Part shown: one piece after another, positions 38,585-55,503 of the stretch
Layout: every line of letters starts with the position of its first letter
Position numbering within the stretch: the stretch's first letter is position 1
NCBI GenBank assembly: GCA_964016885.1
Contig: OZ024742.1
Coordinates: 341,124,001 to 341,188,000, forward strand
DNA: 64,000 bases
Source: Eledone cirrhosa
Lineage: Eukaryota
Direction of reading: 5' to 3'
The notes under the pieces: model-generated
Seen by the model: the letters and a program-made list of their open reading frames with translations, nothing else
Databases searched by the model: none
What the model was told of the DNA's origin: nothing
Translations under genes and position numbers: made by a program

Positions 38585-39391
38585 ATATATATATATATAT
38601 ATATATATATATATATATATATATATATATATATATATATATATTGAAACAAAATGAAAACGAAATTTCATTTCTCACTCTTAGTATGGCACTTACTTAA
38701 ATGTAAGTATGCATGTATACGTACATACATATATGTATACAGACGTACAGTAGCATGCACATATATATATATATATATACATATATACATACATATGCAT
38801 ACAGGTACACATACATATATGCACGTATCAGTTTAGCGGCGCTAACGTCGCTTTGTTCGTTTGTAAACAAACTGAACAGCCTGAATTTATGCCATACGGT
38901 GTTAAGGCAACCACGTCACCTTTTTGTTCAACACTGACACAGAAGCTTGTTAGCTATCATCAGCACCGTTTACCCATCTGCCAGATAGTTGAACGTTCGA
39001 AAGTATATACTTTCCTTATGAAAATTAACGGCTGAGCAGCCCAATTTGCATATTGAGTGAGTTAAATCGGTCAGGCATACCGAAAACGATAAATTGAAAC
39101 AAAATGAAAACGAAATTTCATTTCTCACTCTTAGTATGGCACTTACTTAAATGTAAGTATGCATGTATACGTACATACATATATGTATACAGACGTACAG
39201 TAGCATGCACATATATATATATATATACATATATACATACATATGCATACAGGTACACATACATATATGCACGTATCAGTTTAGCGGCGCTAACGTCGCT
39301 TTGTTCGTTTGTAAACAAACTGAACAGCCTGAATTTATGCCATACGGTGTTAAGGCAACCACGTCACCTTTTTGTTCAACACTGACACAGG

Positions 39392-39436
39392 AACGATGTA
39401 CTAGTTTCAAGCTTGTTAGCTATCATCAGCACCGTT
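39392..39436 (-). ncRNA. minimal type I hammerhead ribozyme, family A unit 2
   Basis: Minus strand reads AACGGTG-CTGATGA-T-AGCT-AACA-AGCT-T-GAAA-CTAG-TA^CATCGTT. This gives a 7-bp stem I, AGCT/AGCT stem II, palindromic ACTAGT stem III and a GUA cleavage triplet. Confidence 0.88.
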
Positions 39437-39509
39437 TACCCATCTGCCAGATAGTTGAACGTTCGAAAGTATATACTTTCCTTATGAAAATTAACGGCTG
39501 AGCAGCCCA

Positions 39510-39517
39510 ATTTGCAT
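39510..39517 (-). promoter_or_regulatory. octamer motif ATGCAAAT upstream of the hammerhead (present in every family A unit)
   Basis: ATTTGCAT on the + strand, 81 nt upstream of CTGATGA in the transcript sense. It sits at the homologous position in family B. Function is inferred. Confidence 0.5.
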
Positions 39518-39857
39518 ATTGAGTGAGTTAAATCGGTCAGGCATACCGAAAACGATAAATTGAAACAAAATGAAAACGAAATTTCATTTCTCACTCTTAG
39601 TATGGCACTTACTTAAATGTAAGTATGCATGTATACGTACATACATATATGTATACAGACGTACAGTAGCATGCACATATATATATATATATACATATAT
39701 ACATACATATGCATACAGGTACACATACATATATGCACGTATCAGTTTAGCGGCGCTAACGTCGCTTTGTTCGTTTGTAAACAAACTGAACAGCCTGAAT
39801 TTATGCCATACGGTGTTAAGGCAACCACGTCACCTTTTTGTTCAACACTGACACAGG

Positions 39858-39902
39858 AACGATGTACTAGTTTCAAGCTTGTTAGCTATCATCAGCACCG
39901 TT
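39858..39902 (-). ncRNA. minimal type I hammerhead ribozyme, family A unit 3
   Basis: Identical to 39392-39436, offset by 466. Confidence 0.88.
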
Positions 39903-40323
39903 TACCCATCTGCCAGATAGTTGAACGTTCGAAAGTATATACTTTCCTTATGAAAATTAACGGCTGAGCAGCCCAATTTGCATATTGAGTGAGTTAAATC
40001 GGTCAGGCATACCGAAAACGATAAATTGAAACAAAATGAAAACGAAATTTCATTTCTCACTCTTAGTATGGCACTTACTTAAATGTAAGTATGCATGTAT
40101 ACGTACATACATATATGTATACAGACGTACAGTAGCATGCACATATATATATATATATACATATATACATACATATGCATACAGGTACACATACATATAT
40201 GCACGTATCAGTTTAGCGGCGCTAACGTCGCTTTGTTCGTTTGTAAACAAACTGAACAGCCTGAATTTATGCCATACGGTGTTAAGGCAACCACGTCACC
40301 TTTTTGTTCAACACTGACACAGG

Positions 40324-40368
40324 AACGATGTACTAGTTTCAAGCTTGTTAGCTATCATCAGCACCGTT
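40324..40368 (-). ncRNA. minimal type I hammerhead ribozyme, family A unit 4
   Basis: Identical to 39392-39436, offset by 932. Confidence 0.88.
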
Positions 40369-40781
40369 TACCCATCTGCCAGATAGTTGAACGTTCGAAA
40401 GTATATACTTTCCTTATGAAAATTAACGGCTGAGCAGCCCAATTTGCATATTGAGTGAGTTAAATCGGTCAGGCATACCGAACAAAGCGACGTTAGCGCC
40501 GCTAAACTGATACGTGCATATATGTATGTGTACCTGTATGCATATGTATGTATATATGTATATATATATATATATGTGCATGCTACTGTACGTCTGTATA
40601 CATATATGTATGTACGTATACATGCATACTTACATATATATATATATATATATATATATATATATGTAGTCTCAGTTAAAGACTGTATTTATATTTTATC
40701 ATACACATCGGTGGCTAGCGCACTAATTACTTTTGCATAGAAGAGGTATGAAGTTAGTGACCTTTCTTCAGGTACTCATGA

Positions 40782-52508: not shown

Positions 52509-52739
52509 CCTTTTAGAGATAATGATGTATATATATATATATATATATATATATATATATATAGAGAGAGAGAGAGAGAGAGACACACACACACACACAC
52601 ACACACACATATATATATATATATATATATATATATATACATTTATATATATAAATACATACATATATGGATATAGATAGATAGATAGATAGATAGATAG
52701 ATAGATAGATAGATAGATAGATAGATAGATAGATAGATA

Positions 52740-53657
52740 TCTTTCTTTATTTTCCACAGGGGCGTACAAAAATTGGACATTACAAGACGTAACGGCGGGG
52801 ATTTTACATAAAAATAACTTTAACATTAATATATAACAATAAATTATATATAATAAAATAACAATTGAAATCCCCAATAGGGGGAACGTTACTGCAGGGT
52901 TGTTTTACACCCCGTGGATTGAACAACCCTCAACACCAGGAACACATTTTGTAGGTGTTCCTGTCTTCCCTCTGTTTATCCTCCTCAACCTACAGGTTTA
53001 TATACAGAGAAGGCCCATTCACTTGGGCCATTTTCGCCACATTCACCCACCTTTCAGCGAATTTACTGGGGTAGAGCACCCCTCTCTCCACTCTCACCTT
53101 CCTTCTGAAGTGATACTTAAAGAAGGTGATAAGTTGTTGTCCGGAGAGAAAGGGGTTTGCCCTCAGTCCTTTTAACCTCATCCACCATATTACCTCTTTC
53201 GCCATAGCCACCAGACAGAGGAAAACCGCCTCTCCTTCGTTCTTAAATGAAGGCGGCGGGATGATCCTCACGATGGACTCGGCTGACAACTGGATGCGTC
53301 CCACACGTGACAGCAGCTGTTAGACATAATTCCACAGGTCGGTCACCCCTGGGCACTGAACAATTGTGTGCAGAACGGTTTCAATGTCCTGCCCGTATCT
53401 TGGACAGGTCCTTTTGGCAGGATCTCTGCCATGGCGTCCGTGCCTGTAGATTTTGTCTTGAACTGGTAGAGCTCCTCGGTAGCACTGCCAGTCCAGAGAC
53501 CTCTGGAAGTTATCCATAGGCCCAGGACGGAAAGTCCTCCCGAACAGATTGGTCAGTTCGTCCTCCTCGATGCCTAGAGTTTCCCCGAGAACGTCGTCGC
53601 ACTTATCCTCCACTAACCCCCTATAGAATGTCGAAGAAACTCCGCTGATTGCCGTTT
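52740..53657 (-). mobile_element. 5'-truncated L1/Tx1-clade LINE (ORF2 C-terminal zinc-knuckle region, frameshifted) with 3' UTR
   Basis: Minus ORFs read RSLDWQCYRGALPVQDKI...CPRYGQDIETVLHTIVQCP..LWNYV and then KEVIWWMR. AATAAA lies near 52750, next to the (ATAG)n run at 52671-52738. Confidence 0.75.
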
Positions 53658-53989
53658 AGATAGATATAAGCCTGTGTGTGTGTGTGTGTGCTAATATTGA
53701 TTAGTTTCTTTAGACCAGATCAATGTGAAATTCATAAATCTTATAGCGAGAAATCGCTACAAATTTGTGTATCTCACGAATTTAAAAAAAAAATAAATAA
53801 AAAAAAAACTTTGCGTGGTCTCTCGACTTGTTAAAAATAACAGTCAAATATCTCCCACACATTGCATCCTACCGTCTTAGAAATAATAAAAATCAGTTCC
53901 CTACTGGATAATGTAGTCCTAAATACATTACTTATATATGAAGGGAAAGATGGGATGGTCAAAAGTGTGATCAGAACTAAACTGGGGAT

Positions 53990-54207
53990 AAACAAGAACA
54001 AGAACTACAAGAACCACAACAACAAAAACGAAGATGGCGGCCATGAGATCAAGAAAAACGAAGATGGCGACGACGACGACAACAATAAAAACGAAGATGG
54101 CGGCGACGACAACAACAAAAACGAAGACGGTGGCGACGACAACAACAAAAACGAAGATGGCGGCGACGACAACAAAAACGAAGACGGCGGCGACGACAAC
54201 AACAAAA
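53990..54207. repeat. about 30-bp minisatellite (AAAAACGAAGATGGCGGCGACGACAACAAC)
   Basis: About 6 imperfect copies. Confidence 0.9.
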
Positions 54208-54820
54208 TTGTTTTCACGGATCGCCGTAAATAGTCTATTTGTAGCAATCGAATTTAAATTTGATGTCACACTGCGTTGAAAAACATTAATTTATATTTGT
54301 TAGAGCATCTTCTTTTTATTTATAAAGTTTGTGTTTTCAATTAAACATCTACAAAATTCATTTGTGTAAAAAATAAATGTTGTTTAAGAACCAAATTTTT
54401 CTGCTCCTGCACGGAATCTTAATGGCATCTCTTGGAATCTATTAGATTAGATAAAAAAAAAACTTATGTATTATATTTTTCAAAAAAGAGAAAACATTGT
54501 CGCCAGGTGTTGTAAGAGATAGACAGATCAAATTACTTTCAAGTTATTTTTTTTTTAAATATTTACAGGAAACTGCTAAGGTCTAGGCAAATTGTAACAC
54601 ACATTTCTAAGATTTATTTTTGGTTAAAATCAAGAAAGATATTTCTCGATGTTCAAGTGAATAAAAAAAAGCAGCAAGACATTTTAAATATGGATTGGTC
54701 TCGACTGTTTTATAACTCAGAACCATTTGGATTATCTAGAGTCTGTGAAGATAAACAATGAAAAATATTGAAAGAAAAATGCTATATATATATTATGTAT
54801 ATATATATATATATATATAT

Positions 54821-55030
54821 AACGGCGATGAATTAGTTTTGCGAGGTTTTTTATATGAAATAGTGTGTCGAAACAAATTGGTCAGTCAATGGTAACATTG
54901 AGAACCGAATAAATTAAATTAACCGATATAAAAGACACAGAAGCGAAAACCAACCAAACAGTGAGTGTGTTCTGTTATTAATTCTGGCAATATTATTACA
55001 CAAATATGACCCTCCCCAAGTATAACAATA
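54821..55030. mobile_element. short rearranged 3' fragment of the Penelope family at 61021-64000
   Basis: 54821-54875 matches 61021-61075, and 54878-55030 matches 61350-61506. Confidence 0.85.
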
Positions 55031-55042
55031 TATATATATATA

Positions 55043-55503
55043 TAATCTGAGTTTTTCGAATATTACTGATAATATTTGATTCGTTTGCAATTATGCAAAC
55101 AGCCACATTTTTAAAGTCATATCAGTAGAATGAGACCCTCATTCTTGCTCTTGTGTTGGCATGTAAACAGAACAGCAGACACTAATGTTTCAGGGTATTA
55201 CCCTTCATCAGTACAGTTCACTGTTCACCTGCCAACTGTCAGAGCTACTGAAAATATAGGATATTTTCTAAAATATACAGTGACTAATCGGCCGGATTTG
55301 CATATTAGCAGATTGGCTGATCAGTCAGATCTACATATTAGCTGATCTTCTGATCAGCGAGATTTGCATATCAGCAGACTAGCCAGTCAGTTTCCTGTAT
55401 ATGAACGATTAATGGCTGGCTTTACCATATTCAAATTAAAAAGAAAAAGTTTTCGCTCTACATGGCTGAATACAATAAATGTAATCTGAGTTTTTCGAAT
55501 ATT
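55043..55503 (-). mobile_element. hammerhead-containing 439-bp monomer with 22-bp terminal direct repeat (retrozyme-like family C)
   Basis: TAATCTGAGTTTTTCGAATATT occurs at 55043 and 55482. The unit contains a hammerhead and three 33-bp sub-repeats with octamers at 55296, 55329 (degenerate) and 55362. Confidence 0.75.
55170..55219 (-). ncRNA. type I hammerhead ribozyme, family C
   Basis: Minus strand reads GAACTGTA-CTGATGA-AGGG-TAATA-CCCT-GAAA-CATTAGTG-TC^TGCTGTTC. The partial copy at about 56048-56079 has TGCAGTTC, restoring full stem I pairing. Confidence 0.85.

Follow-up and report, generated by a model that had tools for sequence, protein, structure and literature searches.

The stretch analysed here (64,000 nt of Eledone cirrhosa, assembly GCA_964016885.1, contig OZ024742.1, positions 341,124,001 to 341,188,000 of the forward strand; hereafter the window) contains three families of short non-coding repeats, A, B and C, each with the octamer ATGCAAAT upstream of a type I hammerhead ribozyme motif. 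The original prediction, made from these letters, took them for retrozymes transcribed from an internal promoter of the small nuclear RNA (snRNA) type and mobilised in trans by Penelope enzymes. A fourth family, F, was found in the genome by pattern search. Unit positions written with a plus sign are counted from the octamer. The arrays lie as follows:

38645..40482, minus strand: predicted retrozyme array of family A, ~3.9 units of 466 nt, with the 3' end at ~+424 joined to (TA)n
40479..40638, plus strand: inverted second arm of the A insertion, ending at ~+367 in (TA)n; the two ends are ~57 nt apart, a Penelope-like arrangement
48118..48225, minus strand: inverted second arm of the B insertion, ending at ~+359
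48234..49349, plus strand: predicted retrozyme array of family B, 2.4 units of 467 nt, with the 3' end at ~+432 joined to TA-rich DNA
55043..55503, minus strand: predicted retrozyme of family C, one 439-nt unit and a short terminal repeat, with the 3' end at ~+262-267 in (TA)n
55287..55378, minus strand: three 33-bp repeats of C, with an octamer or near-octamer in each (exact at 55296-55303 and 55362-55369)

Repeat detection bore out the sizes and strands first given for these arrays (A 466 bp; B 467 bp, 2.4 units; C a 439-bp monomer). Family A has a period of 466, with 3.3 perfect copies at 38943-40482 preceded by a first copy that reaches back to 38645. Its four units had been credited with a hammerhead each; the array was confirmed, but 18 nt are missing from the leftmost unit, GAAA and the cleavage site among them, which leaves three of four A hammerheads intact. 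The multiplication of the octamer by the 33-bp repeats of C (2.8 copies within the 439-nt unit) also held up.

The octamer occurs exactly 10 times in the window against 0.68 expected, and eight of these occurrences are inside A, B and C. From its first base to the C of CTGATGA there are 88 (A), 100 (B) and 92 (C) nt; the 81, 93 and 85 nt reported earlier are the same distances counted from the last base of the octamer. Credible open reading frames had been denied to all three families, and we agree: among frames of at least 80 aa, those in A all cross a TA/CA microsatellite, B is touched only in its TA flank, and C contains no such frame. The families are thus built as retrozymes are, from short tandem non-coding repeats of low GC content without long terminal repeats (LTRs), C being a monomer in the window. 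Directly after C, at 55504-56160, we observed an insert rich in 25-bp repeats and then an older, rearranged C fragment.

Hammerhead ribozymes

The hammerheads of A, B and C are of type I, with a full core and a stem II of 4-5 bp; stem III is very short and palindromic in A and B, and longer in C.

39390..39441, minus strand: minimal type I hammerhead of A, with a very short palindromic stem III and a predicted cut after 39399; also at 39856-39907 and 40322-40373
48526..48597, plus strand: type I hammerhead of B, predicted cut after 48579; second copy at 48993-49064
55165..55226, minus strand: type I hammerhead of C, with a GUC triplet; predicted cut after 55178

A scan of the window with Rfam returned no family at gathering score. 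Below that score, type I hammerheads recur in consecutive units (three in A, two in B), and among the matches listed both B copies correspond to Hammerhead_HH9 (37.7 bits, E 2.5e-6, gathering 52). Sub-threshold matches to microRNA families in the window were rejected as microsatellite or hairpin noise. Stem II shows compensatory changes within B and within F, and circular folds of the units are far stabler than those of shuffles (z -6 to -14). Together with the dispersed copies and insertion ends described below, these tandem units support the retrozyme identity proposed at the outset. That A, B and C are hammerhead retrozymes is well supported by structure; cleavage and circles are predicted.

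Kinship and abundance of the families

The alignment of A with B spans both units in full (score 199, against 30 +/- 4.5 for shuffles), and A and C align with a score of 69 against a shuffle maximum of 53; the score of B with C (33) is under the shuffle maximum of 46. The statement that C could not be aligned by eye to A or B therefore holds for B but not for A. The kinship survives removal of the shared motifs (A-B z 20, A-C z 5); F remains unaligned to A, B and C outside the invariant motifs (z -0.3 to 3.8). Judged by alignment, A, B and C are related and form one superfamily, the cassette being common to them at least partly by descent.

Across the whole genome (3.0 Gb) we counted 22,803 exact matches to the octamer, 70-100 nt of any sequence and the hammerhead core, compared with 4 when the pattern was reversed and 235 when the octamer was inverted; junctions of A/B/C/F-type families account for most of these 235 among the matches listed. 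Four other matches to the octamer-core pattern were taken as chance, as no convincing hammerhead stems were found by eye. A BLAST-type search with B gave 2 places only, an artefact of skipped common words, because the pattern search lists many B copies. Together A, B, C and F make up ~1.4% of an unbiased sample of 80 evenly spaced 10-kb stretches (800 kb) of the genome, in which nine of 72 hammerhead-like motifs have an exact octamer 70-140 nt upstream (A 4/5, B 4/5, F 1/1). Copies 98-100% identical to the window units occur on many contigs, and many dispersed copies are only 72-90% identical.

Contigs of four sequencing runs (kind unrecorded), compared with part of the A unit, gave 23 variant rows, all outside the octamer and the TATA word; with ~16 variable places in 331 nt of the unit in the deepest run, this is uninformative. 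One of the runs differs in its variant mix and depth profile.

A promoter-like module in the repeat units

Ahead of the ribozyme, the units carry short words that resemble those of host snRNA promoters, including a candidate proximal sequence element (PSE):

39507..39518, minus strand: U6-type 12-mer of A, containing the octamer and forming the 5' arm of predicted hairpin 1; also at 39041-39052, 39973-39984 and 40439-40450
39497..39502, minus strand: putative PSE-like core of A, CTCAGC, at +15 (the host U1/U2/U5 core is mostly ATCAGT)
39470..39475, minus strand: TATA word of A, at +42, in the centre of predicted hairpin 2
39445, minus strand: transcription start of A predicted by model, at +72; also 39911 and 40377
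48448..48496, plus strand: B, from 12-mer (48448-48459) to TATA word (48490-48496); second copy at 48915-48963; the core fits the U1/U2 model poorly
55230..55304, minus strand: promoter-like module of C, with 12-mer (55293-55304), core (55283-55288), TATA word (55254-55259) and predicted start (55230)

The U1, U2, U5 and RNase P genes of the host have in common a core word, in most cases ATCAGT, and a TATA word, the TATA-like word standing at about -30 even in U1, U2 and U5. A distal element at about -255 to -290 is common to U1, U2, U6 and RNase P; a search allowing two mismatches did not find it in the six U5 upstream sequences. The 12-mer TATG(C/G)(A/T)AAT(T/G)AG carries the octamer at -76 to -78 in U6 and U6atac. 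With at most one mismatch, the octamer stands there in 8 of 10 distinct U6 upstream sequences, which represent three separate loci and leave out one U6 locus without a start-anchor match, and in the top-scoring U6atac gene (one of 10 loci read). It is absent from this position in all distinct upstream sequences of U1 (12), U2 (6) and U5 (6, from 8 of 15 loci). Core and TATA word are mostly 26-29 nt apart in U1/U2, 26-28 nt in five of six U5 sequences (32 in the other) and 31-33 nt in U6, U6atac and RNase P, the U6 core being set by analogy at +15. The RNase P gene combines a U1/U2 core with U6-like spacing and a T10 end.

All four repeat families carry the U6-type 12-mer, the window copies of A and C deviating from the family majority at the second-last base. 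Across nine representatives of the four lineages, the only invariant runs of at least 4 nt are the 9-mer TATGCAAAT, the 4-nt TATA word and part of the hammerhead core; the search pattern that found F had no TATA-word term. Core-to-TATA spacing is 27 (A), 28 (B), 28 (F) and 30 nt (C). A three-part promoter model, trained on eight host U1/U2 promoters only and without an octamer term, called the held-out U5 starts within 0-2 nt in six of six sequences (13.2-18.7 bits). The same model placed the best sense-strand start at +72/+73 in five of seven units (A, A2, two C copies and F; 7.1-17.3 bits), and the stronger of these scores (12.7-17.3 bits) overlap the U5 range. The proposal of an internal snRNA-type promoter thus gains from the 12-mer, the TATA word and the five starts, and loses from a poor distal element and from B, which fails the model. 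As read from these words and distances, an snRNA-type internal promoter is supported, transcription itself being predicted.

A 311-bp tandem hammerhead family without the octamer, unrelated to A, B, C and F, was observed at G000:C3:190000001-190010000. It has the host distal element at 17.3 bits, 228 nt before its TATA word (host range 227-240), where only 17 of 599,040 background positions reach at least 15 bits. Downstream of the cleavage site, the strand reproduces this element almost letter for letter; the overall promoter-model score of the family is low (5.4 bits). This suggests a separate capture of snRNA promoter parts.

Insertion ends and the probable link to Penelope

Insertions of each family terminate at two fixed positions in the unit, where (TA)n follows, and many consist of two opposed arms. 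The ends are at ~+367 and +424 in A, +359 and +432 in B, and +262-272 and +289-308 in C. Ends at fixed sites into (TA)n make up 10 of 11 in B, 35 of 44 in C and 21 of 56 in A, where 26 of the 35 other ends are mostly short microsatellite matches; paired fixed ends recur in the unbiased sample. Penelope insertions leave a tail of partial tandem and inverted arm (PMC8557442), and a Penelope enzyme initiates at two sites (PMC11167929). The paired fixed ends match such two-site initiation and thus point to retrotransposition into (TA)n. Penelope-type enzymes are likely to mobilise A, B and C, and the suggestion that they do so in trans is well supported by the two fixed 3' ends, the inverted arm and the (TA)n target.

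Two Penelope-like elements were observed in the window. The first (61021-64000, minus strand, continuing into the flank) has an inverted arrangement and a 618-aa frame with reverse transcriptase similarity and a GIY-YIG-like end; the reverse transcriptase frame lies at 62143-63999. Its terminal repeat contains a CTGACGA...GAAA motif, and a fragment of this repeat at 54820-55040 adjoins family C. The second, degenerate element (43222-45850) has inverted terminal repeats, hammerheads at 43318 and 45728, an octamer in opposite orientation ~130 nt upstream, and a GIY-YIG-like relic at 43989-44426, named by eye and without a Pfam match.

Proposed mechanism and alternatives

On balance, we favour the view that the units are related, protein-free, high-copy retrozymes in which host snRNA-type words likely start transcription ahead of the ribozyme, with predicted self-cutting and Penelope pasting into (TA)n. 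The host snRNA machinery (SNAPc and a POU-type factor) would start the transcript at +72/+73, counted from the octamer; the hammerhead core of the same unit lies 16-28 nt further downstream, and read-through of the RNA polymerase II (Pol II) type would reach the next unit. The hammerheads would then cleave, in A and B probably as dimers, as hammerheads with a short stem III do (PMC6765202), and release monomers containing the promoter. A host ligase would close these into circles, a step demonstrated in vitro for retrozymes (PMC7229834), and a Penelope enzyme would copy the RNA from two internal sites into (TA)n. Pol II is more likely than RNA polymerase III (Pol III), because the core-to-TATA spacing of 27-30 nt is U1/U2/U5-like, U6, U6atac and RNase P having a longer one (31-33 nt), and because a transcript can carry the promoter of the next unit only by passing T4-T5 runs. 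Since these letters also fold into two predicted hairpins in the RNA, constraint on the module probably acts on DNA and RNA alike.

A number of observations weigh against this account, including two on RNA structure and octamer conservation that are given further below. The first stem II position is mismatched (U-U in A, A-A in most C copies), and only one of nine predicted Xenopus retrozyme dimers was cleaved in vitro (10.64898/2026.07.22.740005). The octamer stands 70-140 nt upstream of none of the 61 other hammerhead-like motifs in the 800-kb sample, which rules it out as a trait of all hammerhead repeats in the genome. The frames of the promoter model were chosen after both host and unit sets had been seen; the predicted starts of B and B2 rank only 127 and 182 of 934 in it, and scores of 7-8 bits (window C, F) are within TA-rich background (0.3-0.6% of positions; controls up to 13.4 bits). 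The best distal-element match in A, B and C is 7.5 bits, against 15.5-25.5 bits in host genes; F scores 12.8 bits. None of five hammerhead/pseudo-LTR (pLTR) regions from the window and its flank is similar to A, B, C or F, so that their Penelope partner was not identified. Finally, 5' ends do not peak at +72/+73 among copies of the window families and in the 800-kb sample.

Among the alternatives, a compact U6-like Pol III promoter fares best, though we consider it unlikely. Transcription would then start at about +76 to +78, most transcripts would end at T4/T5 runs, and full monomers would arise by rare read-through. In the set of host genes read, only U6 and U6atac have the 12-mer, and B continues U6-like beyond it (4 nt, then CC); a TATA box selects Pol III in vertebrates (PMC1761439), and schistosome hammerhead repeats use this polymerase (cited in PMC2220036 and PMC6765202). 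After +73, A, B and C are free of T4 for 334, 354 and 221 nt, but such stretches are not significant (P 0.21, 0.056 and 0.34), and we rejected T4 depletion as a Pol III sign. The octamer-to-TATA spacing of the units, 42-45 nt, also differs from the 46-48 nt of host U6, a TATA word near -30 is equally present in host U1, U2 and U5, and the occurrence of the promoter in every copy requires read-through.

Likewise unlikely, in our estimate, but a real rival to the promoter reading, is that the module is kept as an RNA structure or protein-binding hairpin, or simply by descent, with transcription read through from outside promoters and a coincidental likeness to snRNA promoters in AT-rich DNA. In a comparison of folds of seven regions, U6 promoters included, all four families were predicted to form two hairpins in a row (z -6.2 in B and -3.5 in F, weaker in A and C). 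Hairpin 1 uses the octamer as its 5' arm in A, A2, B, C and F, whereas U6 promoters have no such fold, and hairpin 2 surrounds the TATA word. The 3' arm of hairpin 1 is the very block that the original prediction took for the PSE; it does not match the host snRNA PSE and pairs with the octamer, and we discarded it as a promoter element. The homology of A, B and C and the failure of B in the promoter model fit the same explanation, as does the lack of excess octamer conservation among C copies. There 27 of 30 copies retain the proximal octamer, the average over all 8-mers being 22.5, and 17% of windows are kept equally well, although weak conservation is also expected from neutral decay after insertion. 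Better conservation of the octamer than of its flanks, one of the conditions attached to the original prediction, is hence not significant within C; across the nine representatives, the 9-mer TATGCAAAT is invariant. The octamer arm is invariant between lineages while its partner varies and has mismatches, which argues, though not conclusively, for more than pairing. Three further points weigh against this rival: the invariant letters recur in a U6-specific element of the host, where they lack a pairing arm; the TATA word follows at constant spacing; and the unrelated 311-bp family carries another host snRNA element, likewise correctly spaced.

That the arrays are an inactive satellite, dead remnants amplified as DNA and neither transcribed nor cleaving, is very improbable: the A unit without a cleavage site and the many diverged dispersed copies would fit, but the near-identical copies on many contigs, the two-armed fixed-end insertions into (TA)n, which point to retrotransposition, and the compensatory stem changes do not.

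Beyond the favoured reading of transcribed, Penelope-mobilised retrozymes, we tentatively suggest, as possible rather than probable, that host snRNA promoter modules were captured more than once. A, B, C and F would carry a hybrid of U6 12-mer and U1/U2 spacing, and the 311-bp family a distal element that doubles as a ribozyme stem strand. Both would be SNAPc-driven, self-circularising elements with the promoter inside the circle as hairpins, and a 4-nt spacing rule would set the polymerase. Predictions at the nucleotide level (start, three elements and spacing) for a family with >20,000 copies make the question directly testable, and snRNA/U6 promoter elements would become defined for this animal, which is useful for expression tools.

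Other features of the window

Positions 1-37698 are a 43-bp satellite (~880 copies, 94% matches). A further short hammerhead family occurs at 51061, 37880 and 50795, with nine motifs in the 800-kb sample; in one copy outside the window, ATCACC precedes TATAAA by 30 nt immediately upstream of the core. More hammerhead-like motifs lie at 38148-38497 and 59565, one of them in a 166-nt inverted repeat. The 3' piece of a long interspersed nuclear element (52740-53655, minus strand) has a zf-RVT match and ends in a (GATA)n tract. Many copies of a tRNA-like short interspersed nuclear element, which seems to resemble the octopus OK family, are at 41490-42032, 50236-50785, 52317-52515 and 58017-58394, and another interrupts one host U6 promoter.

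Comparison with known systems

Already known are the retrozyme class, its dependence on Penelope (as proposed in print) and an snRNA-type promoter for newt satellite 2, which reportedly has an octamer and a PSE. Like that satellite, A, B and C are hammerhead tandem repeats with an apparent internal snRNA-type promoter, Pol II-driven in the newt (Coats, Zhang and Epstein 1994, via PMC2220036; Cremisi 1992, via PMC6765202). They differ in belonging to an invertebrate and in their compact layout, where the U6-type 12-mer lies 15 nt ahead of the core, a TATA word is present and a distal element is missing. Schistosome Sm-alpha likewise has an internal promoter followed by a hammerhead, the promoter of the upstream unit driving the next one (Ferbeyre 1998, via PMC2220036 and PMC6765202); that promoter is of a Pol III, SINE-like kind, in contrast to the snRNA-type words seen here.

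The closest class is that of the metazoan non-LTR retrozymes (Cervera and de la Pena 2020, PMC7229834), which are tandem non-coding repeats of a few hundred bp with low GC content, one type I hammerhead per unit and no LTR, and for which Penelope-like elements were proposed as helper. Compared with these, A, B and C have units of 439-467 nt and a short stem III, and the circles demonstrated there are predicted here. The sections of that paper available to us name no internal promoter and do not mention cephalopods. Nor is there a description of an octopus retrozyme, of the promoter layout of an animal retrozyme or of families A, B and C in the literature searched, a body that excludes subscription papers, Repbase, Dfam and preprint supplements. 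Animal retrozymes are reported to be highly expressed in most tissues (PMC7229834), and the portions of the retrozyme literature consulted are silent on what drives this, internal promoters being cited only for the newt and schistosome repeats.

With the Penelope-derived retrozymes of Li, Clavereau and Pollet (2026, 10.64898/2026.07.22.740005), A, B and C share the co-occurrence with Penelope-like elements; they differ in that no pLTR homologous to them was found among the five regions tested. The main text of that preprint, in the part available, mentions no promoter, octamer, snRNA, molluscs or cephalopods. As for insertion, the two fixed ends of A, B and C resemble the Penelope system of Frangieh 2024 (PMC11167929), in which two adjacent initiation sites leave a tail.

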